A stretch of 64,000 nucleotides of DNA from Rhodothermales bacterium (lineage in GTDB: Bacteria > Bacteroidota > Rhodothermia > Rhodothermales > Bin80): assembly GCA_965207565.1 (NCBI GenBank), contig CBDBMQ010000007.1, positions 28,804 through 92,803 of the forward strand. Direction: 5' to 3'. Shown here piece after piece: positions 43,746 to 64,000 of the stretch. How positions within the stretch are numbered: position 1 is the first letter of the stretch; each line of letters opens with the position of its first letter. The position numbers and the translations under genes are program-made. Under the pieces are notes generated by a model that was given only the letters and a program-made list of their open reading frames with translations, was not told the origin of the DNA and searched no databases.

Positions 43746-43810
43746 AATTTATGTGAACGGACTACAGAACGCTATCGTAAACGAGCCATTGGATAGATGG
43801 TTGAACTGAG

Positions 43811-44497: not shown

Positions 44498-44501
44498 TAA
44501 A

Positions 44502-45596
44502 ATGGATCTTTCTTTTTTATCGGAACAGGTACTGTGGGGAATTTCAATCGGTCAACTGATTGTTGCCGCCGTGCTTCCTCTGTTGGGATTACTGGCACAA
44601 AGTGTGGTGCGGCGATTGCTTCGCCGGGTGACGAGTCGTGCGAGCAAGAAGGGGGATGCGAATATCGTCAATGATGTCAATCGACTTCTCACCAAACCGC
44701 TCAGCTTCCTGATCAATGTGGCACTCTGGAATGGGGTCGTTGGCCTTCTCAACCTTCCAGAACAGCCGCTGAACATCCATCTATGGGCAACCACCGCAGC
44801 GATGGTAGCCCTGATTGTTGTGATTGCCTACTGCGCTTTTCATGTGGTGGATGTGTTTGCAGCGATTGTAGCGCGGGTGGCAGAAAAAACAGAAACAAAG
44901 TTGGATGATCAACTAGTGGTTCCGGTGACCAATACCGTGAAGCTTTTAGTGGCACTGATTATGGTTGCGGCGATCCTGGGGCAGTTCGGCTATTCGGCCA
45001 CCGGTCTGATTGCAAGCCTCAGTATTGGAGGGCTCGCGATCGCTTTTGCCGCAAAGGATACGCTGGCGAATATATTCGGGTCGGTTGTCATTTTCAGTGA
45101 ACGGCCATTCCAGATTGGGGATGTCGTTGAGATCAACGGGCTTGAAGGTTCGGTGGAGGAGGTAGGGATTCGCAGCACTCGGATCCGGCAGTTTGATGAT
45201 ACGCTCTCCATCCTCCCGAACCAGATCTTCACCACTGCGGAAGTCCGCAACCTTTCAAGGCGGGGTTCCCGCCGGGTTCGTTTTGAGGTTACCCTCTCCC
45301 ACGAGGCAACCGCATCGCAGTTGGAGAATTTTCTCGCTTCAATTCGTCATTCACTTGAACAGCGAACCGACCTTCATCCCGATCGGACCCTAGTCCAACT
45401 CACAAAACTGGACACTAGTGGACTCAGCGTGTTGGTCCAGGCCTTCACCGTCTCCACGGACTTTGCAGCGTTTATGGTGACGCAGGAAGAGATTCTGCTA
45501 TGTGTGCGGAAACTGGCCGAAGAGCAGTCGTTGCCCATCATGCCGGCGAAAGAGATTCGTCTCTCTGGTGAGGTCAAAGACCCCCAGTCATCCTGA
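44502..45596 (+). CDS. Small-conductance mechanosensitive channel (MscS family)
   Basis: GGLAIAFAAKDTLAN, PFQIGD and GSVEEVGIRSTRIR. Confidence 0.95.
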   Translation: MDLSFLSEQVLWGISIGQLIVAAVLPLLGLLAQSVVRRLLRRVTSRASKKGDANIVNDVNRLLTKPLSFLINVALWNGVVGLLNLPEQPLNIHLWATTAAMVALIVVIAYCAFHVVDVFAAIVARVAEKTETKLDDQLVVPVTNTVKLLVALIMVAAILGQFGYSATGLIASLSIGGLAIAFAAKDTLANIFGSVVIFSERPFQIGDVVEINGLEGSVEEVGIRSTRIRQFDDTLSILPNQIFTTAEVRNLSRRGSRRVRFEVTLSHEATASQLENFLASIRHSLEQRTDLHPDRTLVQLTKLDTSGLSVLVQAFTVSTDFAAFMVTQEEILLCVRKLAEEQSLPIMPAKEIRLSGEVKDPQSS

Positions 45597-45666: not shown

Positions 45667-45915
45667 ATGAATCCTGAACGGTATTGGAAGATCAACCTGC
45701 GTTATCTGGGAATCCTTCTCGGGATCTGGTTTCTAGTTTCGTTTGGAGCCAGTGTCCTTTTCGTGGACACGCTGGATGCGGTGCGTATCTACGGTTTTAA
45801 GCTGGGGTTCTGGTTTGCACAGCAGGGCGCAATCTATGTATTTGTGGTGATCATTTTTGTTTATGTGGTTCTCATGAACCGGCTTGATCGGAAATCCCCT
45901 GCAGAGGCCTCATGA
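45667..45915 (+). CDS. DUF4212 small subunit of a solute:sodium symporter
   Basis: YW..N, GFKLGFWFAQQG and MNRLD; overlaps the symporter start. Confidence 0.93.
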   Translation: MNPERYWKINLRYLGILLGIWFLVSFGASVLFVDTLDAVRIYGFKLGFWFAQQGAIYVFVVIIFVYVVLMNRLDRKSPAEAS

Positions 45916-47655: not shown

Positions 47656-48129
47656 ATGACTACAAGATATCTGATCATCGCAGCATTTTTTCTCTTCGGG
47701 TGTGTAGAGACCGATCCCGAAGGTGTTTCTGAAACTTCCATGACCGAAGAGGTGCAGCAGGTGGGAGGGGATTCATGTCCGAGCCTTGCAGGCTCATGGG
47801 CACTCGTTGAGATTAGAGAGACTTCAGCGGCTTTGAGCGGAGAGTTTGAGAGTGATCCCGAATATCGGCAGGCTCCCACGTTGAAGGTACTCAACGAAAC
47901 GCACTGGATGTTTATCCGACAGACGGCCGAATCGTTTGTCCACGCACAGGGAGGCCGCTATACGTTGGACTCTCTGGGCTATACGGAATACGTAGAATAC
48001 AGCGCGATTCCTCAAAATGTTGGCCAGTCATTCTCCTTTGACTGCACGATGGAAGGAGACTCTCTCTGGCATCATCAGGGCGGCCAGGGGGATACCCGTT
48101 ATGATGAGGTCTGGCGTCGCGTCCAGTAG
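47656..48129 (+). CDS. Hypothetical lipoprotein (lipocalin-like)
   Basis: Lipobox LFG-C; LAGSWAL, GGRYTL and EVWRRV. Confidence 0.75.
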   Translation: MTTRYLIIAAFFLFGCVETDPEGVSETSMTEEVQQVGGDSCPSLAGSWALVEIRETSAALSGEFESDPEYRQAPTLKVLNETHWMFIRQTAESFVHAQGGRYTLDSLGYTEYVEYSAIPQNVGQSFSFDCTMEGDSLWHHQGGQGDTRYDEVWRRVQ

Positions 48130-48160: not shown

Positions 48161-49762
48161 ATGCAGTTTGCCCCGGTTGACTATGTGGTGTTTGGAGCAT
48201 ACTGCCTCCTTATCGTTTCGTTAGGGCTCTGGGTTTCCCGGGGAAAGAAAGGGCAGGTCCGGGATGCTGAAGACTATTTTCTAGCGAGCAAGTCTCTTCC
48301 GTGGTGGGCCATCGGTGCTTCGCTCATCGCATCCAATATTTCTGCAGAGCAGTTTATTGGAATGTCAGGGTCCGGCTTCCGGCTGGGGTTGGCGATTGCC
48401 ACCTATGAGTGGATGGCTGCGATCACACTGCTTCTGGTTGCGTGGCTGTTTATCCCGATCTATCTGAAGAAGGGCATCTATACGATGCCACAATTTCTGG
48501 AATCGCGCTACGATGCGCGTGTACGGACGCTTCTGGCTGTTTTCTGGCTCTTGGTGTATGTATTTGTGAATCTGACCTCGGTCGTGTACCTCGGTGCCCT
48601 TGCCCTGGAAGGAATCATGGGCGTTACCCTGTGGCAGGGTGTTCTTGCGCTTGCGGTTTTTGCTACGGTTTACAGTGTTTACGGAGGACTCAAAGCGGTT
48701 GCGTGGACCGATGTGGTTCAGGTCTGTTTTCTGATTGGTGGAGGGCTTTTGACCACGGTCATTGCGCTGAATGCCTACAGCGGTGGGGAAGGTATCTTCG
48801 CCGGCTTTGCAAAGCTGCTTGACGAAGTACCGGACCGCTTTAATATGGTCCTTCAGCAGGGGGAACTGCTTTACATTGATGACGACGGGATCCGGCAGGA
48901 TGCATGGGAATTGCTTCCTGGGATTGGGGTTCTTGTTGGTGGGATGTGGGTGGCGAATCTGTTCTACTGGGGATGCAACCAGTACATTATTCAGCGTACA
49001 CTGGCTGCGCCAACGCTGCGGGAAGCGCAGCGGGGGGTTGCATTTGCTGGGTTTCTCAAGCTGCTTCTGCCCTTGATCGTTGTCATCCCCGGAATCATTG
49101 CGTACGCGCTTGCAGCCCCAATCGAAACCGCAGATAAGGCCTATCCATGGCTCTTGAATGAATATGTGGGTCCGGGGCTGAAGGGACTGACGTTTGCCGC
49201 ACTGATTGCAGCGATCGTATCCTCTCTGGCTTCGATGATGAACAGCACGAGCACCATCTTTACGATGGATCTGTACCGCAACTACATTCGACCCAATGCC
49301 AGTCAAAAGGATCTAGTTCGTACGGGGCGGGTGGTCGCACTCGTCAGCATGGCCATCGCCGCGGTCCTGGCACCACAGTTGGCCTCTCTGGATCAGGTAT
49401 TCCAGTATATCCAGGAATATACCGGCTTTGTAAGCCCTGGTGTTTTGGCAATTTTTGTTCTTGGGCTGTTTTGGAAGAAAGCAACTCCGAATGCGGCGCT
49501 GATCTCTGCTGTGCTCAGCATTCCTTTGTCCGTCCTCGTGAAATGGCTTCTGCCCGGCATGCCATTCATAGACCGGATGGGATGGGTGTTTGTGATTTCT
49601 GTGGCACTGATCGTTGGTGTCTCTCTTATTGAGGGCAAGGGAAAGGACAGCAGCAAAGCCATCCGTTTGGGGCGCAATATCATTGAGACGGATCCGGTAT
49701 TTGCCATCCTGTCCTTTGCGATTCTGGCAATCACGGCAGCTTTGTATGTGATTTTCTGGTAA
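48161..49762 (+). CDS. Sodium/sugar symporter (vSGLT/SglT-like)
   Basis: ASNISAEQFIGMSGSG, YEW, YWGCNQYIIQR and FQYIQEYTG. Confidence 0.95.
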   Translation: MQFAPVDYVVFGAYCLLIVSLGLWVSRGKKGQVRDAEDYFLASKSLPWWAIGASLIASNISAEQFIGMSGSGFRLGLAIATYEWMAAITLLLVAWLFIPIYLKKGIYTMPQFLESRYDARVRTLLAVFWLLVYVFVNLTSVVYLGALALEGIMGVTLWQGVLALAVFATVYSVYGGLKAVAWTDVVQVCFLIGGGLLTTVIALNAYSGGEGIFAGFAKLLDEVPDRFNMVLQQGELLYIDDDGIRQDAWELLPGIGVLVGGMWVANLFYWGCNQYIIQRTLAAPTLREAQRGVAFAGFLKLLLPLIVVIPGIIAYALAAPIETADKAYPWLLNEYVGPGLKGLTFAALIAAIVSSLASMMNSTSTIFTMDLYRNYIRPNASQKDLVRTGRVVALVSMAIAAVLAPQLASLDQVFQYIQEYTGFVSPGVLAIFVLGLFWKKATPNAALISAVLSIPLSVLVKWLLPGMPFIDRMGWVFVISVALIVGVSLIEGKGKDSSKAIRLGRNIIETDPVFAILSFAILAITAALYVIFW

Positions 49763-50109
49763 TCCGGGTTGTCACCGTAGGGACATGCGAAAGTTTGAGT
49801 TATATGGCACTTGGGCGATACCATCACATGACCATGATTTTCAGGAGTTTGGAGGCATGCTTTGTTATGGGATAAGCTCTCAGGATCACCTGGTCGCTAA
49901 GTATTCAGTACGGGGTGATCTTTAGCACGATGATATGCGGTATATTACAGATGCGTACTCCGCACGAGTGCAGTCACTTTTATGGGGATCAGAAAAAAAA
50001 ATCAGAATCGTGAAGGTTATATGGATAGTTTGAGAATTTTTAATTAAATTAGTGGCGATCCATGGTTCGTTCGGTCGGAGGTTTCTGTAAGTTGCTTCAT
50101 GTGAGAGCT

Positions 50110-50123
50110 TGGAAACGCTTACA
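50110..50123. promoter_or_regulatory. Putative LacI/GalR-family operator
   Basis: TGGAAACGCTTACA fits the TGNAANCGNTTNCA pseudo-palindrome, ~100 bp upstream of the TonB receptor. Confidence 0.5.
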
Positions 50124-50224
50124 TTATGCGATGGTCGGACGACATGTGTCTCTGATCTGCTTCACGAAGGCGGACAGGGGCTAAGTTAAGAAACAAGTAA
50201 CAACAAGTAAATGGAGGATTTACT

Positions 50225-53200
50225 ATGAGATTTAAACAGCTATTAGGCTTAACAGTGCTTTTACTGCTCACCGTGCCCGTGGCATTTGCTCAACAGGGCA
50301 AGATTGACGGGGTAGTTACCGATGTTGCGACAGGGGAGACGATTCCTGGGGCAAGCGTTATCATTGAGGGCACCGCTCAAGGTGCAGCCACACAGGTGGA
50401 CGGTTACTACTTCATCAACAACGTTCGGCCTGGGACCTACACGCTGGTAGTTTCTTTTGTTGGGTTCGTAACCCAGCGGGTTGAAGGAGTCCGGGTTTCG
50501 ACCGGGTTGACTTCGACGAGAGATATTCAACTGAGCGAGGAAGCCGTTGGTCTGGATGAAATCGTGGTCATGAGTGAGCGCCCAATTGTTCAGTTGGATG
50601 TCTCGGCGAATGTGGCCAGTCTCAACTCGGAGGCTTTTGAAGATCTCCCCGTTGCCGGCGTTAGTGAAGTGCTTGACTTGCAGGCAGGGATTGAGCCGGG
50701 CCTTCGTGTACGGGGCGGAGGATTGAATGAAGTTGCCTTTGTGGTTAGATGGAATGAATCTACGGACGGGGCGCGCCCATCAGCCATTTACAAACATCAG
50801 CTATACTTCATTAGAGGAGGTACAGGTGCAGACCGGTGGATTCAATGCGGAATACGGGAATGTTCGCAGTGGTATCGTGAATGTCACAACCAAAGAGCCT
50901 TCCCGGACGCGCTACACCGTTGATGCACTTTACCGTTATCAACCTGCTCAAGCCAAGGCGCTTGAGGGATTGGGAGGAGTCTCACTGGATAACTGCAACT
51001 ACTCCGGCTCGGTAACAGGGGATTGCGACAGTTGGTTTATTCGTCCGTTCCTGGATCCAGCGGTTGCCATGGAGGGGACAGGTAACGGTGCATGGGATTC
51101 TTATACCCAGAACCAGTACAATGCTTTTGAGGGCTGGAATGCACTGGCTGAGCGGCTCGTGACTGGTGAGGGATTTGATGTCACGGCCCAGGATATGCAG
51201 GACTATTTCAAGCACACGCACCGCAAAGATAACGAGATCACCAAGCCTGATTATGAGGTGGATGTGACGGTTGCGGGGCCACTGGTTCCAGGCCTTAGTC
51301 GTAGGCTGGGTGATTTGCGTTTCTCTGCCTCATATCGGGGAACTCAGACCGCCTACATCTACCCGCAGACCCGGGATGCATTTACAAACCAGACATTCCA
51401 AGGTAAGATTATCTCGAATGTTAGACCTGGGATGAAGTTGAGTCTGCAGGGGATGAAAGGCATTGAGCGGGGGATAAACCGCTCGCAGGGGAGTGCAGAC
51501 CTCCGAATGTATGGTGGCCAAATGCCGGCGTATCCATGGTGGGGGGCAGGAGCAGATATCGTGGATGGCATCAATCGTCGAGGACGTGTTATCCTGTCTG
51601 ACGGTGCGTTCCCGCTCGCCAATGTAGACCACACGATGATCGGAGCAACCTTCACGCATACCCTGAGCGCGAGTACCTTTTATGAAGTGAATCTTCAGAA
51701 TATTGCTTCAAAATATCGTAGTCATTTCCCGAATCTTCGTGACGGCTCGTATATCGAGAATAGCGAGTTTTTCCCAGTTCCGTATACGAATAACTTCGGC
51801 CGGTTGACTCCGGCAGGGGAACAGAACAGGGATCAAGTCACCTGCTTTGGTGGGGCTAGCGACCTTAGTGGGGATGGGAAGGTCGTTCCCTACTGTGTGG
51901 GGGATGAGCCGTTTGGATTTTTGGGTCAGGGCGGAAACCTTTTGGGTGGAGCGGAGACCACCGGTGGTCACTGGGTCAAAACCCGGGACACCTCCGATGT
52001 GAGTGTCTTTTACGGGACGGTTTGATCTGACCAGTCAGGTAACACGCGTGCTTCAGCTTAAAACAGGTGCAGAACTCATTATCAGTGACTATGCCCTGAA
52101 CTATAAAAGAGTCAATCTGGCCTTGGTCGGACCGGAGCCTGAAGCGGATTATCCGTTCTCACGCCAACCGATCCAGGGTGCAGCCTATGCACAGGGTAAG
52201 CTTGAATTCCAGGGAATGATCGCCAATCTGGAGTTCGCGTTGACTTCTTTGATGCGAATACGGCTTGGTGGGTAGCAGAGAACCCCTATGATCAGGCGTT
52301 CCGGCAACGGGCGGAAGAGTTGGACGAACTTCTGCCGAAGGAGGATCCAGATGCCCAGATATTCATCAGTCCCCCGGCTCGGGATTTCTTTCCCGATCAC
52401 CTCGGAAAGCAAGCTCTACTTCAATTATGGTCATTTCCGCCAGATGCTGAATCCGTTTGATGTATTTGGCGTTCAGCAATCGCGTAACGGAGGGATTGAT
52501 GTTCTGGGGAACCCGGATCACCCAATGGCCTCAGACCGTGGCGTACGAGTTGGGGTTTGACCAAAACCTGTTTGACCAGTACCTGCTACGGATTAGTGGG
52601 TTTTACAGAGACATCCGGAATCAGCCCCGGAATGTCAGCTACAATAGTCTCGGTGGTGTTGTGAATTATACGATCAAGCAGCCATGGAATTACGAGGATG
52701 TACGCGGCGCGGAGGTCACGCTCACTAAACTGCGTGGGGACTGGATCCGTGGGTTCGTGAACTACACCTTCCTCCAGACGAAGAGTGGTAATTTTGGCTA
52801 CAGCCGCTTTCAACGAGAACACGTTCCAGCAGCGTAACTATCTGAGGACATCTACCGATTATCGCCTTTCGGCACCACTTGCCGAGCCGTTTGCCCGCGC
52901 AAACCTACTCTTCTTAACGCCAAGCAGCCTCGTCCCATCGGTGTTCAATGGTGCGTTGCTGGGGGATTGGAGGGTCAGCCTTCTGGGTGAGTGGCGTGCA
53001 GGCAGCCAGTGGACTTGGGCCGGTGGTGGTGGAACACCGCCAGAACTCCAGCAGAATGTGCGCTGGCGCAGCTACTTGAATTTTGACCTTCGTTTCACGA
53101 AGCACATCAATACGCGTTACGGCGGTGCACAGGTCTTCCTGGATGTTTCGAACTTGTTCAATCGTCGCCATCTCTATAGTGCGACCGGCTTCCATCCAGA

Positions 53201-53612
53201 TGGTCGGGACTTTGACCGGTATATGTGGTCACTGCACCTGCCGGAAGATATCTTTGATCAGTTGAATGCGGTAGATGAGACGTTGCCGTATGCAGAAAAA
53301 CAGGGACTCCCGTATATCTGGGTCCCGGGTGATGATCGTCCTGGAGTATTTCGTCATCCAGACGTAGCGTATCAGCCGATTGAAGCATCCAAATCGCTGG
53401 ATGGTGTCTCCAACCCGAATACTACCGCGTGGTATTGGGCAGCGGATACAGGGACCTACTCCCGCTGGAATGGATCCAGTTTTGAAGAAGTACCTAGTAA
53501 TGAGGTCAACCAGGTGCTTGATGATAAAGCGTACATTGATATGCCGAACCTCCGGTTCAATACGTTTCTCAATAATCGGCGGATCACGTTGGGGATTCGC
53601 GTAACCTTATAG
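50225..53612 (+). CDS. Large TonB-dependent receptor (6 apparent 1-bp indels)
   Basis: Signal peptide, ETIPGASVIIEGT, VRGG..EVAFVVDG, TGGFNAEYGN..SGIVNVTTK, SPRLGISFPI and a terminal strand ITLGIRVTL; SD GGAGG. Confidence 0.93.
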
Positions 53613-53621
53613 CTTGCAGTA

Positions 53622-53651
53622 AGGCTACCACCTCTTTGGGGGTGGTAGCCT
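53622..53651 (+). other. Intergenic stem-loop between the TonB receptor and cargo genes
   Basis: AGGCTACCACC ... GGTGGTAGCCT, an 11-bp perfect inverted repeat with no U-tract. Confidence 0.75.
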
Positions 53652-53686
53652 GCTGACTGACACAAAAACTAGACTTAGCAAGCCTC

Positions 53687-56030
53687 ATGAAAATCAGATA
53701 CCATTTCAAGGCGTTAACCATCGGCACGTTTTTGCTGATGCTTACGCCAACCGTTGCCATGTCGCAGTTCACCGCTCAGTGGCTGGACATTGGCACATTT
53801 CACAGTACGTACACCGAGTCGGGAGCGCAGCACGAAGGCAACTCCTCTGCTTCGGATGGCATGGAGTGGCCTGCCATCCTGCGGAACAGCAGTCACTATC
53901 GTGCCAGAGCACTTTGGGCTTGGCACAAAGAACTGGACCGCCTGCAGACGGGCAAAACTTTCCGTATTTCGTGGCCCGTATTGGCCCGCGTACTGCCGGT
54001 GCGGACGTGACGTATCCAGGTACAGAACCGTTTGATCCAGCAGGACGGAAGACACGGTTATAGAAGTCGATGGAGCACTGTCCTTTGACAACGTGGCGAT
54101 CGTCGACGAGATTAACCCATCCCTTCCAGCTGACCGGATGGTTCACAACATCCACAATACCTATATCGGTGTTACGGTGGATCGAAAAGCGTACGCCTAC
54201 GTGAATCAGGTGCACGATGATTCGAATGTGATAGAGTACACCTACACCAATACTGGCAATACCGACGAAGATGAAGATATTGAGTTGCCGGATCAGAGCC
54301 TGAGTGAAACCTACTTCTTCCGCATCCACCGGCTCAGAGGGAATTTGCAGGGAGCCTGGGCGGTCAGTGGTGGTCAGGTCTGGGGGAAGTTCAGCATGAT
54401 TGATGTTGTAGGAGACGGGCATGCAGATTATCCCCTCTCGTTTACATCCCAGTATCTCTGGATTGGAATTGACCCTGAAACCCAGGACTATGATCGTTTT
54501 GGTGGATCGCTGTTCAACCAACGAAATGATTGGCCTCAGGGAGATACGATCGGGCGTTTGGCAGCAGCTAGCTATATAGGTCGTGCTACGATCCATGCCG
54601 ATAATTCTCCGACGGACCCCACGTACATCCGCTGTACAACCGCCACGATTGATACCTGTCAGCCATCCACCATGGGATTCATGGACCAGGATGAGGCACT
54701 GACAGCGGACGGTAGTCCGCAGGAAGATTATTACGAGTGGGGCATCCGGACACGGGAAAATCCCGACCGGATTGAGGGTGGCTCTGCCCATATGTTTCCT
54801 CATTATGCGGATCGGATTGAGCCCGACGGGATTTTCTGGGAGCCCGAGAATGACTCCTCTACCGGGAAACAGGGTGGACACGCAATCACCACGGCCTACG
54901 GCCCCTATGATTTTGCGCCGGGAGAGAGTGTCAGGATTGTTGTGGTCGAAGGGGTTGGCGGGTTGTCCATTGATGCAGCGGTGCGGATTGGGAGAGCCTT
55001 CAAACTCGGCGGACAGGATCGGAATACACAGTTGATCCGATACGATGCGAATGGGGATGGAATGATTCAAACAGGCACTTTCGACTTTAGCATCAATCAA
55101 ATGGATGTGGATGGTGACGGCATGTTTGACACGTTTGGTCATGGTCTGGAGGAAATGACCAAGAATCAATGGGTTGTGACTGCGAGAGATTCATTACTGA
55201 CTGTTCAGCAGCGAGCGATCAACCTCTATGCGGCCAGTAACAATATGACAACCTATCCGATTCCAGAGGCGCCTCATTCTCCTACGAGCTTCACGGTCGT
55301 AGGTCGGCCAGACAAGGTTGAAATCGATTGGACTAACCCGGCCGGTGGTCCCAACCGTACGTCATGGAAACTGTACCGAACCTCTCGGTTTGAGGATTAC
55401 ATTTACCAGAACTGCATGAATCTTGATACCAGGCAGTTTACCGATGGCTCAAATGCGAAAGATCCGGCAGATCCTTCTGCAACACAGCAGGCGCATTGCG
55501 ACTATGATCTTATTGCGGATCTTGGTCCAGGGGCAACGTCGTACGAAGATACCGACCTGAACCGGGGAACAGATTATTACTACTACCTGCAAGCGATTGG
55601 TGAGCCGCAGTCCGTTGACCCCGATGGAATTAACGGAACCCCGACTGGCGCTCCGCTTCGCAGTTCTCGCTATCTCACACAGACGTACCTACCAGTGAAC
55701 CTCAAGCGTCCTCCTTACGGAGCAACAGGGACGGTGGCAGATGCGCGTATTGTGCCGAACCCGGTGAACCTTGGTTCAGATCCGACCATACGGTTTGATC
55801 AGGAAGATCGGGTGGCGTTCTTCAACATTCCCGGGAATTGCACGATCAAGGTCTATACCGAAATCGGTGAACTAGTCCATACGATTGAGCACAACGATGG
55901 AAGTGGTGATGAACTTTGGAACCTGACGACTACGTCTCGACAGCTACTGGTCAGTGGCATTTATATCGCGGTCATTACGGACAACGATACGGGAGATGAG
56001 GCAATTCAGAAATTCACGGTAATCCGGTAG
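53687..56030 (+). CDS. Secreted protein with FN3-like domain and T9SS/FlgD-like C-terminal domain (4 apparent 1-bp insertions at 53915-54040)
   Basis: Signal peptide; rejoined frame ..ALWLGTKNWTAADGQNFPY..YPVQNRLISRTEDTVIEVDG..; SYEDTDLNRGTDYYYY; C-terminal IVPNP..FFNIPGNCTIKVYT.IGELV..WNL..VSGIY..KFTVIR. Confidence 0.85.
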
Positions 56031-56038
56031 ATGTGGTT

Positions 56039-56070
56039 TGCGCCGCGCTTTGATGGTAAAGCGCGGCGCA
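56039..56070 (+). other. Intergenic stem-loop between the cargo and PorV-like genes
   Basis: TGCGCCGCGCTTT-gatggt-AAAGCGCGGCGCA, a 13-bp perfect stem with no U-tract. Confidence 0.8.
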
Positions 56071-56098
56071 GCCCATCACCCAAAGAAAACACAATGAA

Positions 56099-57166
56099 AT
56101 GAAAAAATATACTCTCCTTTCAACATTGACCATCTTGGCACTTGTGTTCGCTGGTGTGTCAATGTCTTATGGCCAGGCAGGCCTAACGCCGGATACGGAG
56201 GTGGAAACAGATAAGCGTGCCCAGGCTGGCATGAAGTTTCTCAGCACATCCGTGGATGCGCGGGCTTCTGCGATTGGTTCTGCCATGACGGCGGAACTGT
56301 CCGGTTCTTCGGTGTCCATGTTCTATAATCCTGCGAGTATGGGCTTTATGCCCGGACGCATGTCCGCAGCAGCGACGAATATGTCGTTCATTGCAGATAT
56401 TGGATACACGCAGGCCAGCGTTGCTTTCCGTCCAGGTTCAGCTGGCAATTATGGTGTCGTCGGCGTCTCGCTCGTGTCCGTTGACTACGGTGCCTTCCAT
56501 CACACGATTCGTGCGAACAACGATGATGGATTTATCGAAAACGGCACGTACAGCCCGACGTCGATGGCAGTCGGGCTCGGATATGCCCGCTCCTTCGGTG
56601 ACCGCTTCTCGGCCGGTGCGAATATCAAGCTTGTCTTCCAGGATATTGGCTCCGGGTTTTCAACCTCACAGGATTTTGATACGGGAGTCATTGCTACGAC
56701 AGAAGATTACAATACCCGGACGATCGCATACGACTTTGGTATTGTGTACGCAACCGGGTTTGAGAGCTTGGTGATCGGCATGAGTGCCCGCAACTTCGGG
56801 CAAGAGCAGATCTATGTACGCGAACGGTTTGAGTTACCCTTAACCTTCCAGATTGGAATGTCCATGAACCTGGTGGATCTTACTGCGATTGATCCGGATA
56901 TGCACAGCATTCAACTGCATGTGGATGCGCAGCGTCCACGTGACTTTGCGGAGCATGTTCGCTTTGGTCTAGAATACACCTTCATGGATATGGTATCGTT
57001 ACGTGGAGGATTTGAGCAGTTGGGTGTCAGTGAAGAGCAAGGGTTCAGCGCCGGTGCAGGACTTCGGTATGCATTTGGAGGATTCAACGTTGGAGCGGAT
57101 TATGCCTACACCGACTTCGGTCTGTTTGGTGCAGTCAATCGGATTGGACTTCAGATTGGTCTATAG
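56099..57166 (+). CDS. PorV/PorQ-like (UPF0164) outer-membrane beta-barrel
   Basis: KFLSTSVDARASAIG, MFYNPAS, LPLTFQIG, GLEY..VSLRGG and DYAYTDFG. Confidence 0.88.
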   Translation: MKKYTLLSTLTILALVFAGVSMSYGQAGLTPDTEVETDKRAQAGMKFLSTSVDARASAIGSAMTAELSGSSVSMFYNPASMGFMPGRMSAAATNMSFIADIGYTQASVAFRPGSAGNYGVVGVSLVSVDYGAFHHTIRANNDDGFIENGTYSPTSMAVGLGYARSFGDRFSAGANIKLVFQDIGSGFSTSQDFDTGVIATTEDYNTRTIAYDFGIVYATGFESLVIGMSARNFGQEQIYVRERFELPLTFQIGMSMNLVDLTAIDPDMHSIQLHVDAQRPRDFAEHVRFGLEYTFMDMVSLRGGFEQLGVSEEQGFSAGAGLRYAFGGFNVGADYAYTDFGLFGAVNRIGLQIGL

Positions 57167-57247
57167 AGCTTCGGCGTGACCAATCTTGGGTATTTTGAGT
57201 GGAAGGTCGTCAATCAACGAAACTCAATTTATGCTACGCTGAGTAGC

Positions 57248-58560
57248 ATGAGGACGGGGATCTTGTTTGTCACCTTGTTTTCTGTCGTATTTGGAGGCTG
57301 CGACAGCGGGGTTGACATGGAGGATCTTGCTATTTCAGACTCCGGCGCAATTAAGGCTGCTCAGCGGTTTTACGAGAATTTTCATGAACGGGACACCCAG
57401 TCACCTGGCGACAGTATCAGGGGCTTTGTGTTGGCTGATTTGTGTTGGCTGAAATGATCCGCCAATACCCGGCCGATTGGGCACAGGTCGTTGCATGGCC
57501 CGATGGTCGGGGAGGTATGTATGTATCAACCCTGATTGGTGCCGACAAGCCTGCGATCAGTTTTTCGCACGACGATATATCCGTTGTACGTACGCTGATG
57601 GTTGACATTAACTCAGAGGGCATGGCGACCGCGTCACGACTACTGGAGTTCATTAGTTCTGATCCACTTGATCAGTCCCAATTTCAGTACTATACGAAGC
57701 AATGGCTTGTAGGCGATTATGATACGACTGCAATGATGACCTCGGAATATAGTCTTGGTTTCGAGTCTGAGAAGGCACAATTCTTTTTGCCATCTGACAG
57801 CGCGCTGTTTCCGGTTGATATATCCCTGAAAGAAATTACTAGGCAGGGCAAGACGGAAGATGAGACGTATTGGTGTTACGTAAGCGATTATACGAGAGGG
57901 GGGGATGTGTGTTTTGAGTATCAGGGAGAATCCGGTTGCGGGCATACTCCTGGCGAAATAGAGATTACCTGCATCTGTACTTCTGGTTGCGGCGAAGAAC
58001 AAGATGGCGGTGGTGGCGGAGGAGGTACAGGAGGAAGAGGTATAGGAGACCCGCCTACCGGTAGGGGTGGAGGTGGGGAGAATGGAGATAATGAAGAGGA
58101 AGATAAATGCAACTGCGTCAGCCAGAAGGTTTGTGATCTTATCACAGAATACGAGGACGTGGGAGTTAACTTTACACCTAGTTGTTCTGACTTCCGAGGC
58201 GGGGGATCAACCGCAAATTTTTCATGGAACGAATTTATGGGAGGTTGGAGTAATGGTAATGAAGGCGGGAAACATAGCCCCTACGGTATCATGGATCAGG
58301 GCGTCATGAATCGTGTTCAGGAAATCCGCATTTTGTACGGGGGCCCAATCACATTGACTTCAGGCTACCGATGTCCAAAGGGGAATCAAGCTGTGGGTGG
58401 AGTGCCACAAAGTCGGCATATGCGAGGGACTGCAGTTGATATTCATACCGGATGCGATAAAGCTTATCACGATGACTTGGCAAGATATGCGGACGGTATG
58501 GGATTTTCCCCAACCGAATGGGGGACTTATCCAGATTGCCATCTACATATCCAGAGGTAA
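57248..58560 (+). CDS. Lipoprotein with Cys/Gly-rich linker and C-terminal peptidase M15 (zinc D-Ala-D-Ala peptidase-like) domain; frame broken by a 14-bp duplication
   Basis: Lipobox FGG-C; TSGYRC..N..VGG..SRHMRGTAVDI..HLH motif; removing one repeat copy fuses the two ORFs. Confidence 0.85.
57425..57452 (+). repeat. Perfect 14-bp tandem duplication TTTGTGTTGGCTGA x2
   Basis: Directly visible; accounts exactly for the frame change between ORFs 57176 and 57442. Confidence 0.95.
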
Positions 58561-58578
58561 TAGACCTATACACACGCT

Positions 58579-59385
58579 ATGTCTGCAAAATTCATCTTGC
58601 CACTTTTTCTCAGCCTGTTTTCAGTATGCACAGTACATGCACAAAAGCCCATGGGCGCCACGCCAGACGGAGTCATCCGGCAGCTCACCAGCTCAGATTA
58701 CAGAACGGTGCTTGATGGTCTGGCCGATTACATGAGTCTCCCGAAGAATCAGCGCACTCCAGCCGTGAAAGCTGCACTTGTGCAGGCACTCAAAAATGAA
58801 AACGAGCGTATTCGATCAATTATACTGACAAGAGGAGATGCAATGCCTGTATACGAAGATCATGGATCTGCTGAAGGGGCATTGCTTCTGGTAGGGGAGG
58901 TGTATGAACTGCAAGATCCTACTACAATCCCGGCACTTTTACCTTGGCGCGGATGGTCTGATGAAATGATTGATTTTGGACGACAGGCATTTGAACCTGT
59001 TTTGGGGTTTATCGAAGAATCGCCGCCAGGTACTACACGACACGCAATCGCCGGTCGCCTTTATACTCTCCGTATGATGGTTGATTACTGGGGTTTGGAC
59101 ACGTTCAGTGCATCCGAGCACCAACGTATGAAACAGGTTGCCGCAAAATATATCGTGAACTCTGAGTTCTCCACAATGAGTGATGCTATCTCGCTAGCCG
59201 CGTCTCTTCAGGAAAGAGCACTGCTTCAAATGGCAAACGTCTTAGTAAATGATGATGCGGAGATGGCAAAACGGGAGGTCGGTAACAGAGATAGGTTACA
59301 AGAAATTGCATCACAAGCGTTGGCAGGTACGCTAGAGGAGCGGCAGTATGTGCCATATGAGGAGCGGCGAAAGAGAGGATACTGA
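58579..59385 (+). CDS. Exported alpha-helical hypothetical protein, candidate immunity protein
   Basis: Signal peptide ending VHA-Q, helical HEAT-like pattern, 18 bp after the peptidase gene. Confidence 0.65.
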   Translation: MSAKFILPLFLSLFSVCTVHAQKPMGATPDGVIRQLTSSDYRTVLDGLADYMSLPKNQRTPAVKAALVQALKNENERIRSIILTRGDAMPVYEDHGSAEGALLLVGEVYELQDPTTIPALLPWRGWSDEMIDFGRQAFEPVLGFIEESPPGTTRHAIAGRLYTLRMMVDYWGLDTFSASEHQRMKQVAAKYIVNSEFSTMSDAISLAASLQERALLQMANVLVNDDAEMAKREVGNRDRLQEIASQALAGTLEERQYVPYEERRKRGY

Positions 59386-59466
59386 GTTTACATTTCTCCC
59401 AGGCTTTCACTCAATTATTCAAATTGTGAAACCTACATCTTCAGTGAGGCTTTACAGTTCGTCGCA

Positions 59467-61242
59467 TTGACCTTTCCAATAAAAAAGGTGAAGAGCCTCT
59501 TTATCAGCCTAAGGTATTGGGTTGATTTGGCTGTGGTTTGCAGGATAGGAGTCCTCGTTGTAGTCTCGTTTGGGATATTTGGCTGCCAGATATCGGAGGA
59601 TCCGGTGCCCGAACAGGGATTCATCCAATTCACCGAGGTGACCGATGAGGTGGGCCTCGGCACGTTTCGGCATGATAATGGGGAGGATGGCAAAAAGTAT
59701 TATGCGGAGCAGATGGGCTCGGGAGCAGGCTTTATTGACTATGATGGAGATGGTTGGCTGGATATACTTCTTGCGGGGGGTGGCTACTGGGATCGGGCTC
59801 CACATCCGTGGTACAAGCCCCTATGGATGTACCGTAATATGGGGGATGGCACATTCATGGAGGTGACCGACCACGTGGGATTGAAAGATCTTGATGCGTT
59901 TACCCTTGGAGTGGCGACAGCGGATTATGACAATGATGGGGATCAGGATATTCTGATCACCAATCTGAATGAAAATATGCTCCTGGAAAATAAAGGGGGA
60001 GTATTTGAGCGCAGGGGAGTCGACGTAGGACTCAGTTCAGAGGACGAATGGAGCAGTTCTGCCCTGTGGATTGATGGGAATCGGGATGGATGGCTGGATG
60101 TGTATGTGGGGAATTATGCGGACTGGACCCCGGAAACCGATAAATTTTGTCCAGAAGGAGGAGTTGAGAAGCTCTATTGTATTCCTGCGGACTATGAGGG
60201 ACAGGCCAGTCGTTATTATGAAGCCCGGGGGGATGGCTCATTCGTGGACCGGACCCAGGAAGTCGACGTGTATCATTCACTTGGAAAAGCACTTGGAATG
60301 GCAGAATGGGATTTTAATCAGGATGGCTGGCCGGATTTCGTGGTCGCGAATGATGGAGAGGGAGATCTGCTGTTTCTAAATAATAGAGATGGTACGTTTT
60401 CTGAGCGCGGTGTCCAGAGTGGCATTGCATTCAGCGAGCATGGGGAAGCCCGTGCCGGAATGGGCATTGATATTGGTGTGGTGGATCAGACTGGCCACCC
60501 CTCGGTTTTTGTGGGTAACTTTTCCACAGAAATGATTGGTGTCTACCGGTATCTGGGCAATGGTCTATTTGCAGATCGTGCTGCAAGATCCCAGATTGGT
60601 CAACCCAGCCTCAACACACTCACCTTCGGGCTCATGCTCGTGGATGTAGATCTGGATACAGATTTGGATCTGTTTGTTGCCAATGGACACGTTTACCCCG
60701 ACCGGCTGATTGGACAGGATAAAATCACCTATGAGCAGCGAGCACAGCTGTTTGAGAATGATGGAGCGGGCTTGTTTGAGGAAGTTCCCGCTTCAACGAC
60801 TCCCCCGCTTGTACTGGAGATGGTTGCCCGTGGCGCAGCCTATGGGGATTATGACCGGGATGGGGACTTGGATTTTCTCATTGTGGAGAACCATGGTCCA
60901 GCACATCTGTGGCGCAGCGATGTGAGGGGTCGAAATTGGCTACGGGTGAGTGTCACGGGTACCAATGGAAACCGTGACGCCTTCGGGACACATATCCGGG
61001 TACATGCTGGCGATCAGGTTCAAGAGCGCCGGATTCGATCAGGGGGCAGTTACCTGTCTCAGAATGAAATCGTTGCCGCATTTGGAATGCTGGACATTGA
61101 AGTTGTAGACAGTATGCTGGTCAGTTGGCCTGATGGGCAGACGCAGGTCCTGTATGATCTTCCCGTGAATATTGAGGCCCATATTACTCAGGGACAGGAG
61201 GGCTGGAGCACTCGCCCAATGCCTGGCAAGCCAACTAATTGA
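59467..61242 (+). CDS. CRTAC1-family (FG-GAP repeats + ASPIC/UnbV) lipoprotein 1
   Basis: Repeated DYDxDGxxD motifs, GGSYLSQ and lipobox IFG-C; the real start is probably further downstream. Confidence 0.93.
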   Translation: MTFPIKKVKSLFISLRYWVDLAVVCRIGVLVVVSFGIFGCQISEDPVPEQGFIQFTEVTDEVGLGTFRHDNGEDGKKYYAEQMGSGAGFIDYDGDGWLDILLAGGGYWDRAPHPWYKPLWMYRNMGDGTFMEVTDHVGLKDLDAFTLGVATADYDNDGDQDILITNLNENMLLENKGGVFERRGVDVGLSSEDEWSSSALWIDGNRDGWLDVYVGNYADWTPETDKFCPEGGVEKLYCIPADYEGQASRYYEARGDGSFVDRTQEVDVYHSLGKALGMAEWDFNQDGWPDFVVANDGEGDLLFLNNRDGTFSERGVQSGIAFSEHGEARAGMGIDIGVVDQTGHPSVFVGNFSTEMIGVYRYLGNGLFADRAARSQIGQPSLNTLTFGLMLVDVDLDTDLDLFVANGHVYPDRLIGQDKITYEQRAQLFENDGAGLFEEVPASTTPPLVLEMVARGAAYGDYDRDGDLDFLIVENHGPAHLWRSDVRGRNWLRVSVTGTNGNRDAFGTHIRVHAGDQVQERRIRSGGSYLSQNEIVAAFGMLDIEVVDSMLVSWPDGQTQVLYDLPVNIEAHITQGQEGWSTRPMPGKPTN

Positions 61243-62909
61243 TGCGGAGTGTGATTATAGCATGTGTGGGGATCACCCTGATTGCGGGATGTGCCGGGGA
61301 CGCCCCCCAGGATCCAGACGCAGTGAACACGCTGTTTGCGGATGTGACCGAGGAGATTGGATTCGGAGGGGTTGTGCATAATCACGGCGGGTTCGGGAAT
61401 TCCTGGGCACCGGAAATTGTCGGTGCAGGAGGGGCATTCTTTGACTACGACCAGGATGGCTGGCAGGATATTATTGTGGCGACAGGGGGGGCATTTGAAG
61501 GAGAGCCTCCACTTGGAGCACATCCGGCTCTGCGACTGTTTCGCAATCTTGGTAATGGACAATTCGATGAGGTGACCCAACCAGCCGGCCTAGCCTTGCT
61601 TCGCGCTTACAGCCTGGGAATGACCATCGGGGATTATGACAACGACGGGGATCAGGATATTTATGTGACCACACTGGAAGAAGATCTGCTACTGCGTAAC
61701 ACGGATGGCGTTTTTGAGGAAATTGGACAGGCGGCGAAGGTAGGCTTGGTCAGTGAGTGGAGTACGAGTGCAATGTTCTTTGATGCAAACCGTGATGGAT
61801 TCCTGGATCTCTATGTTGGAACGTATGTTCACTGGACGCCCGAAGATGATATTTACTGCAGTTTCGGTGACAGTAAGGTATACTGTACGCCTGAGTTGTA
61901 TGATGGGATTGCCAGTCGGTACTACCAGAATAATGGAGATGGCACCTTTACAGATCTTACGGAGCAGGTGGGATTCCTGTCGGGAGTCGATGCGGGTCGG
62001 GACAAAACGTTAGGGGTTGCGGAACTGGATGCAAATCAGGATGGGTGGCCCGATGTGTTCGTTGCAAATGATACAGAGCGGGACATGCTGTTTATGAATC
62101 AAGGCGACGGGACGTTCGTGGAAACGGGCAGACGCAGTGGGGTCGCGTATGATCAGCATGGGAAGCCGAGGGCCGGCATGGGTGTGGATATTGGTGTGGT
62201 GGATGACTCGGGGGAGCCATCTATCTTTGTCGGAAACTTTTCGGATGAGATGGTAGGGGTCTATCAGCATAGAGGCAATGGCATGTTCAATGACCGTGCA
62301 GCTGCATCCAGGATGGGGCAGCCCAGCCTGAAGACACTCACCTTTGGTCTGGTACTCTTTGATGTTGATCTGGACACAGATCTGGACGTATTGATTGCCA
62401 ATGGTCATGTACAGACACACATTGCTCAGATTGTGGACGGAGTCGCCTTTCGGCAGCGTCCGCAATTATTTTTGAATACTGGAGCAGGCACGTTTACAGA
62501 GATGTCGGCAAGCGGGCCACTGGCAGCGTCTTTTGTCGGTCGGGGTCTGGCCACGGGGGACTATGATCGTGATGGTGACCTGGATGTTCTTCTGGTCGAA
62601 AACAATGGCCCCGCACATGTGTGGCGGAATGAGTCCGAGGGAGAGACCTGGCTCCGGGTTGAACTCACAGGTACCAGGAGCAATCGCAATGCGTATGGTG
62701 CACAACTCCACCTGTGGAGTCGTGGACACATGCAGGTGCGGCGTATTCGTACGGGTTCCAGCTATTTGTCCCATTCGGAGTCAGCCGCCTTTTTTGGGCT
62801 TCAGGGGATGCCAGACAGTCTCTATGTCCGTTGGCCAAGTGGACTGGAAACCTGGGTTCATGAATTACCGATCAATACCACGATACACCTTTTAGAAGAT
62901 GAATTGTAA
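61239..62909 (+). CDS. CRTAC1-family lipoprotein 2
   Basis: Same architecture; lipobox IAG-C and GSSYLSH. Confidence 0.93.
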   Translation: MMRSVIIACVGITLIAGCAGDAPQDPDAVNTLFADVTEEIGFGGVVHNHGGFGNSWAPEIVGAGGAFFDYDQDGWQDIIVATGGAFEGEPPLGAHPALRLFRNLGNGQFDEVTQPAGLALLRAYSLGMTIGDYDNDGDQDIYVTTLEEDLLLRNTDGVFEEIGQAAKVGLVSEWSTSAMFFDANRDGFLDLYVGTYVHWTPEDDIYCSFGDSKVYCTPELYDGIASRYYQNNGDGTFTDLTEQVGFLSGVDAGRDKTLGVAELDANQDGWPDVFVANDTERDMLFMNQGDGTFVETGRRSGVAYDQHGKPRAGMGVDIGVVDDSGEPSIFVGNFSDEMVGVYQHRGNGMFNDRAAASRMGQPSLKTLTFGLVLFDVDLDTDLDVLIANGHVQTHIAQIVDGVAFRQRPQLFLNTGAGTFTEMSASGPLAASFVGRGLATGDYDRDGDLDVLLVENNGPAHVWRNESEGETWLRVELTGTRSNRNAYGAQLHLWSRGHMQVRRIRTGSSYLSHSESAAFFGLQGMPDSLYVRWPSGLETWVHELPINTTIHLLEDEL

Positions 62910-64000
62910 GGGACTTATCCGAATTGAGGGCATGATCTTGCTTTTCGTTTTCGGAGCATGCAGTCAATCCGCCCCTGACCCGCAGGTATCAGAAGAGATT
63001 CAGCAGGCCCCTCAGATCGTATTTACAGACATGACCGCGTCTGCCGGTCTGGGAGATTTCCTGCACGAAACCGGAGCCTTTGGAGAAAAATGGTTTCCAG
63101 AGACAATGGGGGCAGGAGGAGGATTTCTGGATTATGATGGAGATGGAATCCTGGATATTTTGCTGATCTCCGGTAGTGTGTTTCCATCGCAGGGAGCGAT
63201 TGCACAACCCTCAATTCGTCTGTATCGCGGTAGCGAGAACGGGCAATTCGCAGAAGTGACCCAAGGGGCCGGTCTACAATCTCTTCAGAGCTATGCATTT
63301 GGTGTGAGTGTTGCAGATTACGATAATGACGGCGATCCCGATGTGTTTGTGACGGCGTTGTATGAAAACCTTCTGCTTCGTAATGAAGGAGGAGTCTTTC
63401 GCGAAGTCAGTCAGGAAGCAGGACTGGGGGGATATAGCGAGTGGAGCAGTGCCAGTGTGTTTCTGGATGCGGATCGGGATGGGTTTTTGGATTTATACAT
63501 CGGGAATTATGTTCACTGGACTCCTGAAGAGGATATTTACTGCACACGGGTAGGGGATAAGAAATCCTATTGCACCCCGGAGCAGTATGAGGGAATTACG
63601 GGACGGTTTTACCGGAATCGGGGGGACGGCACATTTGAAGAGAGGTCAGATGATTTTGCCGGTTTGCCTGGCAAAACGCTTGCGGCTGCGGGTATGGACT
63701 ACAACCGGGATGGATGGCCGGATTTGATTGTTGCGAATGATACCCAGCGGGACCTTCTTTTTGAAAACCAAGGGGATGGAATTTTTATTGAGAAGGGCGT
63801 GGTCAGTGGGATTGCGTTCGATGAAAATGGGCGTGCACGCGCCGGAATGGGGATCGATGTTGGTGTGGTGGACCATACCGGTGGAGAGACGGTATTCATA
63901 GGACATTTCTCAGGTGAAATGGTGGGTGTCTATCGACATATGGGCAACGGAATCTTTACCGAACGGGCAGCGGTTTCCCAGATCGGACGGCCCAGCCTGC
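62899..64000 (+). CDS. CRTAC1-family lipoprotein 3 (partial, runs off the window edge)
   Basis: Manual translation MNCKG..LLFVFGAC..FTDMTASAGL..WFPETMGAGGGFLDYDGDG; paralogous to the two upstream genes. Confidence 0.9.
   Translation, partial: MNCKGLIRIEGMILLFVFGACSQSAPDPQVSEEIQQAPQIVFTDMTASAGLGDFLHETGAFGEKWFPETMGAGGGFLDYDGDGILDILLISGSVFPSQGAIAQPSIRLYRGSENGQFAEVTQGAGLQSLQSYAFGVSVADYDNDGDPDVFVTALYENLLLRNEGGVFREVSQEAGLGGYSEWSSASVFLDADRDGFLDLYIGNYVHWTPEEDIYCTRVGDKKSYCTPEQYEGITGRFYRNRGDGTFEERSDDFAGLPGKTLAAAGMDYNRDGWPDLIVANDTQRDLLFENQGDGIFIEKGVVSGIAFDENGRARAGMGIDVGVVDHTGGETVFIGHFSGEMVGVYRHMGNGIFTERAAVSQIGRPSL

Follow-up and report, generated by a model that had tools for sequence, protein, structure and literature searches.

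A 64,000-nucleotide stretch of the genome of a Rhodothermales bacterium (assembly GCA_965207565.1, contig CBDBMQ010000007.1, positions 28,804 to 92,803 of the forward strand), here called the window, contains three consecutive genes that encode a TonB-dependent receptor, a secreted protein with a C-terminal type IX secretion system (T9SS) tail, and an outer-membrane barrel of the PorV/PorQ family. The secreted protein is referred to as the cargo and the three genes together as the triad. In the reading that we favor, with a probability of roughly 55%, these genes are one copy of an outer-membrane module for glycan uptake that is conserved and under LacI control, and in which the cargo would be docked on the barrel and would capture glycan for the receptor.

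Conservation of the triad

The receptor gene is located at 50225..53612, the cargo gene at 53687..56030, and the barrel gene at 56099..57166, all on the + strand. An orthologous barrel (at least 79% identity) is present in 16 of the 18 genomes of the genus. Among 70 related loci collected from genome records, 64 from Rhodothermales can be evaluated on both sides of the cargo, and 57 of these have the order receptor-cargo-barrel. One of the 64 (L090) is permuted to cargo-barrel-receptor, and six have a lone cargo homologue. A distant sample consists of 20 loci, 18 from other classes of the phylum and two from the same class. All three genes are found at 17 of the 19 evaluable loci in this sample, mostly in the usual order. 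The order barrel-receptor-cargo exists at L103, L106, and one of the two L101 triads, and L111 and L114 have the cargo alone. That the set of three is kept in more than one gene order and in several classes argues for the triad as a conserved functional unit. The earlier note on this DNA had staked its proposal on such conservation. Note that the pairwise identities of cargo and receptor (r 0.99) and of cargo and barrel (r 0.94) over the 57 loci follow from shared descent, and these correlations were discarded as evidence.

Cargo homologues without receptor or barrel exist beside sulfatases at L079:3493-11403 and L084:3370-7727. Those of L079 are a tandem pair, which also has an FG-GAP/ASPIC gene and the gene of a T9SS-tailed M43 peptidase beside it. 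At L087:3203-10640 and L088:6980-14374, differently tailed cargo homologues are followed by proteins of 296-320 amino acids (aa) that belong to no family, and both loci also have a convergent pair of FecR and CarboxypepD_reg receptor genes.

Four triads and two cargo families

The source genome has nine PorV/PorQ-family genes, four of which follow a receptor and a large tail-bearing protein. One of these is in the window and the others are on contigs C1, C6, and C9. The four triad receptors form one clade (SH-aLRT 99) among the 29 CarboxypepD_reg-type receptors of the genome, apart from the three SusC, and within this clade the window type branches as the sister group of the remaining three. 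The cargos of C1, C6, and C9 belong to one family, here the second cargo family, whose members have ~1,200-1,300 aa and are 31-32% identical. The region that they share with the 781-aa window cargo is the last ~100 residues only (BLASTP, 25% identity, E 4e-7). When the two cargo families are aligned profile to profile with hhalign, the 96 columns of the C-terminal domain are matched with 97.6% probability and nothing else is matched. In the barrel tree, the window-type clade has a support of 100 and the C1/C6/C9-type group a support of 90. The same split is thus seen among receptors, among barrels, and between the cargo families, implying that the three genes have diversified in parallel; co-phylogeny of the three had been named as a check in the earlier note. 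Judged by sequence comparison, the tail is what unites the triads of both cargo families.

Tail and barrel resemble PorZ and PorQ

The C-terminal domain of the cargo is encoded at 55734..56027 (+ strand). Against the type-A sorting model TIGR04183, the window tail scores 17.2 bits (19.1 for an orthologue), below the cut-off of 23. It matches instead the last ~90 positions of the PorZ model NF052228 with 27-31 bits; the cut-off of that model is 260, and the cargo is not a full PorZ. The true PorZ of this genome is located at C9:446178-448496 (375.6 bits). Besides it, the only matches to the PorZ model in the genome are the window tail and the tail of a 529-aa protein on contig C20. In the predicted structure described below, the cargo tail is superimposed on the C-terminal domain of PorZ (5m11_A) with Z 10.8 and a root-mean-square deviation (rmsd) of 2.4 A over 87 residues at 20% identity. 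Although the type-A cut-off is missed, the tail does have the beta-sandwich fold of a T9SS C-terminal domain.

The likeness extends to other triads. For 16 window-type triad tails from diverse genomes, the best NCBIfam hit is the PorZ C-terminus in 15, and 14 miss the type-A cut-off. The tails of the second cargo family match best the C-terminus of PorU or PorZ. Cargo homologues that have no barrel at L083, L085, L111, and L114 carry canonical type-A tails (31.5-43.7 bits). Fused forms of the cargo, in which the partner modules are LRR, FG-GAP, BNR/sortilin, RCC1, or beta-helix, have a C-terminal T9SS tail of the common kind in 24 of the 28 scanned (PF18962 Por_Secre_tail in 23; FlgD_ig alone in P0375), and no tail was detected in the remaining four.

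The 529-aa protein of C20 is part of a smaller arrangement. At C20:38220-41730 (L117:2224-5731) it is followed by two tandem PorV/PorQ-family barrels, without a TonB-dependent receptor. It has a BNR/Ycf48-like propeller match and the PorZ-like tail (33.4 bits), and with the two barrels it makes up a cargo-barrel module.

The window barrel, a FadL-like protein of 355 aa encoded by an intact gene, belongs to the PorV/PorQ subfamily NF033709 (175.6 bits, cut-off 90). The earlier note called it PorV-like; the family is right, and within the family the barrel is nearer PorQ (NF033711, 92.1 bits, cut-off 220) than PorV (NF033710, 50.3 bits, cut-off 250), although it is neither. All four triad barrels score 162-214 bits with NF033709 and pass no equivalog cut-off, and their best equivalog is PorQ with 84-101 bits. 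The genome's own PorV and PorQ score 303.6 and 232.4 bits. Elsewhere in the genome there are a true PorV beside PorU, as well as a true PorQ, PorZ, and SprA. The nearest solved relative of the window barrel by sequence is PorV (6h3i_F, 2e-18).

It is stated in a passage of PMC10202324 that the tails of PorZ and PorU are retained and hold these proteins on PorQ and PorV, and it is proposed there that cognate PorV-like barrels shield tails from cleavage. Because of these precedents, the cargo is somewhat more probably than otherwise anchored on its own barrel by its tail. The earlier note had the cargo held at the surface by its own PorV paralogue. A special tail and a dedicated barrel are indeed found together, and what they resemble is PorZ with PorQ, not shuttling by PorV or the pair SprB/SprF.

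The three genes may alternatively be co-regulated without forming a complex. The barrel would then only help its own cargo through secretion or shuttle it, in the manner of SprF with SprB, and the cargo would be attached to lipopolysaccharide or released, a free-standing SusE/F-like binder that neither docks on the barrel nor contacts the receptor. Such an arrangement has a precedent, as cognate barrels required for secretion of particular cargoes are given as established for type-B tails in the same part of PMC10202324. Cargo homologues without receptor or barrel exist (the six Rhodothermales loci as well as L111 and L114), and the fused forms take the general pathway. However, the tail resembles exactly the two tails that are retained, those of PorZ and PorU. 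The three genes are also kept together across classes in two gene orders, and the receptors co-diversify with the type of cargo. This alternative is regarded as rather unlikely, and docking of the cargo on its barrel is preferred.

A putative LacI operator upstream of the receptor

The spacer between the symporter gene that precedes the triad and the receptor gene is 460 nt long and holds TGGAAACGCTTACA at 50110..50123, 115 nt upstream of the receptor ATG. This is a perfect match to the palindromic LacI/CcpA-type consensus TGNAANCGNTTNCA, of which there are just nine matches in the 3.35-Mb genome. The same motif exists at the same position in four of five orthologous loci. More widely, it is found within -350..+20 of the receptor start at 15 of 67 related loci, compared with three matches in the remaining 1.01 Mb of these loci. 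A LacI-type operator had been read here from the window alone; the rarity of the motif in the genome and its conservation among orthologous loci fit this reading. No LacI gene exists inside the window, and two are found in the genome (C9 and C27). In G029, a LacI gene is located directly upstream of the triad. A promoter and terminator scan of 49700-59600 gave nothing above shuffled sequences.

Glycan context of the triads

Triads are found in starch and beta-glucan contexts. Downstream of the C1 triad are genes for a CBM20 protein and an alpha-amylase, each of which carries a type-A tail. The C9 triad is bordered on one flank by LacI, FG-GAP/ASPIC, TPR, and tail-bearing proteins and on the opposite flank by a GH16+CBM6 enzyme. 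The neighbors of the C6 triad are an FG-GAP protein and an amidase with a tail. The conserved companions of the window triad are FG-GAP/ASPIC lipoproteins, a TPR protein, and an alpha/beta hydrolase, and an FG-GAP homologue is present at 46 of the 57 triad loci.

The clearest case is a set of seven second-family loci (L119-L125) from genomes of other classes that have no match to the SusD family PF07980. In all seven, a GH13 amylase gene is followed by receptor, cargo, and barrel. A SurA-like peptidyl-prolyl isomerase (PPIase) gene stands directly before the receptor in six (not L123), and a LacI gene is found upstream of the triad where the stretch reaches that far (L120 and L125). L124 ends within the first residues of the barrel. 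In the six loci that reach past the barrel, the next gene encodes a tail-bearing protein, with CBM20 detected in four, and the stretch also contains a further GH13 amylase, which carries a sorting tail in two. Read from gene content, such a locus is the layout of the Bacteroides starch system gene for gene, except that the triad stands where SusC/SusD would be and that secretion tails substitute for lipid anchors. The triad had been put forward as an alternative to SusC/SusD, and it does occupy that slot in putatively LacI-controlled loci that also carry carbohydrate-active enzymes (CAZymes). It is probable that the triad serves glycan uptake. As for the SurA-like PPIase, it may be a dedicated periplasmic chaperone; a SurA-like PPIase gene is also found after the barrel of the C9 locus (L021:4149-5501).

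FG-GAP proteins recur around both kinds of system. Each true SusC-SusD pair of the genome (C13, C14, and C24; L016-L020) is flanked by one to three large FG-GAP/ASPIC-UnbV proteins, and the same accessory family follows the window triad and the C9 triad. P0246, P0250, and P0252, from some organisms, are fusion proteins in which FG-GAP_2 repeats and a type-A tail are joined to the cargo body. These fusions and the window neighborhood give a hint that the cargo body and FG-GAP proteins may work together.

Distribution of cargo and SusD

Across 401 evenly sampled genomes of the phylum, the second cargo family (E <=1e-40) is found in 155 genomes, the window cargo family (E <=1e-10, tail-only matches included) in 181, and PF07980 in 218. 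By genome family, the second cargo family and PF07980 are present in 0/28 and 28/28 genomes of f32, 0/21 and 19/21 of f26, 0/7 and 7/7 of f35, 21/22 and 6/22 of f37, 8/8 and 1/8 of f31, 5/5 and 0/5 of f29, 43/61 and 60/61 of f23, and 0/87 and 0/87 of f30, respectively. Among the 301 genomes outside Rhodothermia, 81 have the cargo, 124 have PF07980, and 21 have both, so that 60 of the 81 cargo-positive genomes are without PF07980; note that these counts are not independent because of kinship and that SusD was surveyed by one of four models, PF07980. Outside Rhodothermia, cargo and SusD thus tend to be complementary rather than exclusive.

Most Rhodothermia, including the source genome, carry both systems. 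Strict exclusivity with susD, raised in the earlier note, was rejected: it holds at the level of the locus and fails at the level of the genome, since the source genome has four triads and three SusC-SusD pairs.

Frame breaks in receptor and cargo

In the window, the receptor is split over six frame pieces and the cargo over two. A large receptor and a cargo of about 780 aa are thus present as described in the earlier note, but neither is a single open frame. As a reference over 16.4 kb we used the complete genome G003, which comes from the same genus and shares 94% identity in this region. Compared with G003, the receptor gene has six single-base insertions or deletions (indels; at 50745, 52008, 52230, 52371, 52527, and 52810) and the cargo gene has four (at 53916, 53941, 54020, and 54037). 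All ten change the length of a homopolymer run, and nine are +1 insertions. Receptor (1127-1136 aa; 1127 aa in the intact orthologue), cargo (778-820 aa; 781 aa in the intact orthologue), and barrel are intact in all five orthologous loci.

It is quite likely that the frame breaks are assembly errors. If instead the ten frameshifts were real, receptor and cargo would be pseudogenes of very recent origin and the locus would be dead in the present strain. The indels crowd into 3.3 kb, with none in the coding sequence of the other ~13 kb aligned to G003, which fits that alternative. No near-identical contig spans any of the sites either. On the other hand, the only contigs with 99+% identity have a depth of ~2 and end exactly at the indel sites, bridging none, and contigs from two public runs that are 95-99% alike, at a depth of 11-29, lack every listed insertion. 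The restriction to homopolymer runs, almost always by one added base, also speaks for assembly error, and a break of the same kind is seen in the C6 cargo of this assembly, which differs from G003 by two homopolymer indels (C6:62581 and 63585). When the indels are ignored, there are zero in-frame stops, and the comparison with G003 gives a dN/dS of 0.11 (receptor) and 0.09 (cargo), like the 0.05-0.14 of intact neighbor genes. A dead locus is accordingly considered unlikely. A further sign of single-base assembly errors is seen at C13:1932-2871 (L016), where an aldo/keto reductase is in two overlapping frames.

The cargo body is a predicted supersandwich

The structure of the cargo was predicted from 74 sequences (mean pLDDT 88.4, pTM 0.85) and the predicted fold was aligned against 48,161 solved chains; all fold matches given here are those of the predicted model. 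The protein consists of a signal peptide, a beta-rich body (~28-520), a long helix, an FN3 region (~525-675), and the tail (681-781). The leader is of the signal-peptidase-I type (..AMS/QF) and has no lipobox. Residues 28-572 match the N-domain of bacterial glucoamylase (1lf6_A) with Z 17.5 and an rmsd of 3.0 A over 233 residues. The N-domains of dextran dextrinase (Z 16.8), glucodextranase (16.5), and GH94/GH65/GH116 enzymes (14-16) follow; in all, ~15 enzymes besides 1lf6_A match with Z 14-17. Sequence identity is 5-12%. Galactose-mutarotase-like proteins match less (Z 11-12), and the body has the galactose-mutarotase-like supersandwich fold. Foldseek returns FN3 tandems and weak matches to GH94 N-domains. 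A SusD-like fold was ruled out, as the predicted body is a beta supersandwich and not helical and TPR-like. With E up to 1 allowed, none of the SusD families PF07980, PF14322, PF12771, and PF12741 matches the gene that follows the receptor, and the reported lack of a SusD there stands.

Pfam and NCBIfam searches of the cargo body gave no match outside the FN3 region and the tail, and a PDB profile search gave FN3 only. The same PDB search with the second cargo family gave 0 hits. Both families are only 'hypothetical' in public records. At least 401 relatives of the window cargo have E <=0.001 among 8,000 candidates scored, and 399 representatives at 50% identity have E <=1e-30; for the second family there are at least ~1,500 relatives among the top 8,000 candidates scored.

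In the model, no catalytic domain follows the supersandwich. Because of this fold without a catalytic domain, the most plausible reading of the cargo is a protein of carbohydrate-binding type that has no enzymatic function; on this reading it is not a SusD, and it is not a released enzyme either. The cargo might also be an enzyme, i.e., an extracellular mutarotase, lyase, or glycosidase. Galactose mutarotases and several lyases do share the supersandwich, with the Z of 11-12 to mutarotase-like proteins given above, and many residues are invariant over the 74 sequences. However, the confident model contains no catalytic (alpha/alpha) toroid or barrel, no enzyme is matched in sequence beyond FN3 and tail, and the top-scoring glycoside hydrolases and phosphorylases are matched in their non-catalytic N-domain. 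An enzymatic cargo is therefore improbable; the cargo is not the recognizable released enzyme that would have counted against the proposal of the earlier note.

The receptor is distinct from SusC

The receptor has a plug domain (PF07715, 31.8 bits, cut-off 23.9) and a CarboxypepD_reg domain (75 bits). No Pfam barrel model matches the window-type receptor, and the paralogous triad receptors match PF00593 or PF14905. In a PDB profile search, just positions 8-258 align, to a SusC homologue. The intact orthologue scores 69.6 bits with the SusC model TIGR04056, over positions 2-218 only, well below the cut-off of 368.25. In a genome search with the same model, the window receptor scores 72.7 bits, compared with 546-638 for the three true SusC.

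That the receptor exports the cargo, as Oar does PopC in Myxococcus, rather than importing nutrients is highly improbable: protein secretion that requires a TonB-dependent transporter has been recorded (PMC6434023) and some second-type triad receptors weakly match the Oar-like barrel model PF25183, but the cargo comes with a T9SS tail and with a PorV/PorQ-family barrel of its own in a genome whose T9SS is complete, and LacI, symporters, and periplasmic GH13 enzymes at the loci fit import.

Other genes of the window

All genes from 45.9 to 64 kb of the window are on the + strand. The symporter gene nearest the triad (48161..49762) is intact and encodes a sugar-type Na+/solute symporter of 533 aa (Pfam SSF 9.2e-77; TIGR00813 385 bits), which scores 378.5 bits with PRK10484 (cut-off 401). 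Another Na+/solute symporter, of 559 aa (Pfam SSF 1.1e-48), is encoded at 45912..47591. Between the two, at 47656..48129, is a gene for a small DUF4488-like lipoprotein of 157 aa (PF14869 24.8 bits, missing the cut-off of 27; lipobox ..LFGC), which adjoins the symporter gene in many orthologous loci.

Downstream of the barrel, three FG-GAP/ASPIC-UnbV lipoproteins are encoded at 59467..61242 (FG-GAP_3 1.2e-36, UnbV_ASPIC 3e-14), 61239..62909 (FG-GAP_3 and UnbV_ASPIC), and 62899..64000, the last of which continues beyond the end of the window. Their lipoboxes, read in the translations, are ..FGC, ..AGC, and ..GAC. On the contig beyond them are the TPR gene and the alpha/beta-hydrolase gene.

A strain-variable insert separates the barrel from the FG-GAP genes. 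It consists of an M15 peptidase with a long Gly-rich linker (57442..58560; PF08291 6e-17) and a 268-aa protein with no family match (58579..59385). Since the insert is missing in G005, G001, and G012, it is not counted in the conserved module. In G003, three other genes stand in place of the insert at 57442-59385, one of them 79% DNA-identical to part of the window insert. Upstream of the locus, at 42831-45596, are an LD-carboxypeptidase (- strand), a WbqC-like protein, and an MscS-type channel, with no evident link to the module.

The gene inventory of the earlier note, i.e., symporter, operator, receptor, FN3 protein, barrel, and three FG-GAP lipoproteins, is reproduced at every position, and the tail quoted there as IVPNP..FFNIP..KFTVIR is present on the FN3 protein at 53687-56030. 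The M15 peptidase, the 268-aa gene, and the frame breaks had been omitted.

Proposed mechanism

The following steps are suggested. The TonB-dependent receptor, from a clade distinct from SusC, would import the substrate. The cargo, a surface protein that is not a lipoprotein, would be exported via the T9SS and would keep its PorZ-like C-terminal domain, docking with it on the dedicated PorQ-like barrel as PorZ does on PorQ. The anchored cargo would bind glycan at the cell surface and hand the glycan or its fragments to the receptor, doing the job of the lipoprotein SusD (or SusE/F) in SusCD systems. The adjacent Na+/sugar symporters would then carry the periplasmic product into the cell. Direct contact of the barrel-cargo pair with the receptor, with the cargo as the lid that the earlier note proposed, is less likely than not.

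Several observations weigh against this reading. Joint monophyly of all triad barrels is compatible with the tree but unsupported (SH-aLRT 2). A PorZ-like tail is kept without an adjacent barrel at L078, L079 (two genes), and L084; the record sets of L079 and L084 also hold a triad with a very similar tail (L076 and L080). Two of the 16 triad tails pass the type-A cut-off, and matches to the PorZ model are local and low (19-45 bits vs. the whole-protein cut-off of 260). The window copies of receptor and cargo are frame-broken, and the window locus itself has no CAZyme. One SusD of the source genome is seen only by PF12771/PF12741, and 'SusD-negative' genomes may hold divergent SusD. While the supersandwich is non-catalytic in most of the matched enzymes, the shared fold alone is no demonstration of sugar binding.

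A wider proposal, more speculative than the module itself, is that Rhodothermia and several other non-Bacteroidia classes possess a lipoprotein-independent 'utilisome', in which a T9SS-exported glycan binder would be docked with a PorZ-like tail on a PorQ-like barrel lying against the TonB-dependent transporter, and would be the lid or feeder of that transporter. It is conceivable, at about the same doubtful level, that this is a counterpart of SusCD that explains the import of starch and other glycans in SusD-poor lineages. On this view it would possibly be older than SusCD.

Glycan uptake in Bacteroidota is by general agreement recognized by SusC/SusD pairs, on which prediction of polysaccharide utilization loci depends. 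If the reading is true, Ignavibacteriales, Kapabacteria, and Rhodothermales gain a testable uptake machine and a new marker for finding their sugar loci. A role would be assigned to two protein families that are so far only 'hypothetical', and the anchoring principle of PorQ and PorZ would reach from the secretion machine to nutrient capture. Cultured carriers exist by name among the homologues (Rubrivirga marina and Rhodocaloribacter litoris), so the idea is directly testable.

Comparison with known systems

A search of the full-text literature, supplements excepted, found no description of a module of receptor, tail-bearing protein, and PorV/PorQ-family barrel. Such clusters may stand, unnamed, in Fig. 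S5 of PMC10576277 and in the gene tables of other genome papers. One candidate is the xylan locus of Rhodothermus marinus, for which Table 1 of PMC6987092 lists a LacI gene, two xylan enzymes bearing a C-terminal domain, and then Rmar_1070-1072, i.e., a TonB-dependent receptor, a 'hypothetical' cell-attached protein with a Por tail, and another 'hypothetical' protein. By the descriptions in that table, to which the likening is limited, this is the pattern of the triad. A separate SusC/SusD pair is named there as the transporter of the xylan locus. As for SusD-poor lineages, a passage of PMC10576277 reports that susCD is scarce in the gene clusters of Ignavibacteriales and absent from those of Kapabacteria, and an ordinary sus operon is mentioned for Melioribacter in part of PMC3534657.

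Like SusC/SusD, the triad has a CarboxypepD_reg TonB-dependent receptor followed by a surface protein, in a regulated locus with CBM proteins and with surface and periplasmic amylases, and in the source genome FG-GAP/ASPIC genes accompany both systems. Unlike SusC/SusD, its receptor is outside the SusC family (69.6 bits vs. 368). The partner of this receptor is not SusD, is not TPR-like, and has a T9SS tail instead of a lipid anchor, and surface enzymes at triad loci likewise use T9SS tails rather than lipid anchors. A third gene, the PorQ-like barrel, is always present in the triad.

The supersandwich predicted at ~28-572 of the cargo is the fold of the N-domains of GH15 glucoamylase, GH94, and GH65 enzymes, at the 5-12% identity given above. 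Where those enzymes have a catalytic domain, the cargo has FN3 and a T9SS tail.

SprB/SprF-type pairs of cargo and cognate barrel are mentioned in a section of PMC10202324, and the triad cargo is similarly co-encoded with its own outer-membrane barrel. Unlike SprF, however, this barrel belongs to PorV/PorQ and not to PorP/SprF. The tail is closer to type A/PorZ than to type B, with only 18 bits for CHU_C, and there is no link to gliding.

The closest likeness of cargo and barrel is to PorZ-PorQ and PorU-PorV, in which a protein with a C-terminal domain of the PorZ/PorU type is paired with a barrel of the PorV/PorQ family. The triad barrel misses both cut-offs, and the true PorQ, PorZ, PorV, and PorU lie elsewhere in the genome. 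The cargo body is supersandwich and FN3, not propellers as in PorZ, and it is tied to a receptor and to sugar loci. Retention of the tail is known for PorZ and PorU, and for the triad cargo we infer it. The triad, apparently undescribed as a module, therefore seems to join two known kinds of system: TonB-dependent glycan uptake and anchoring of the PorQ-PorZ type.

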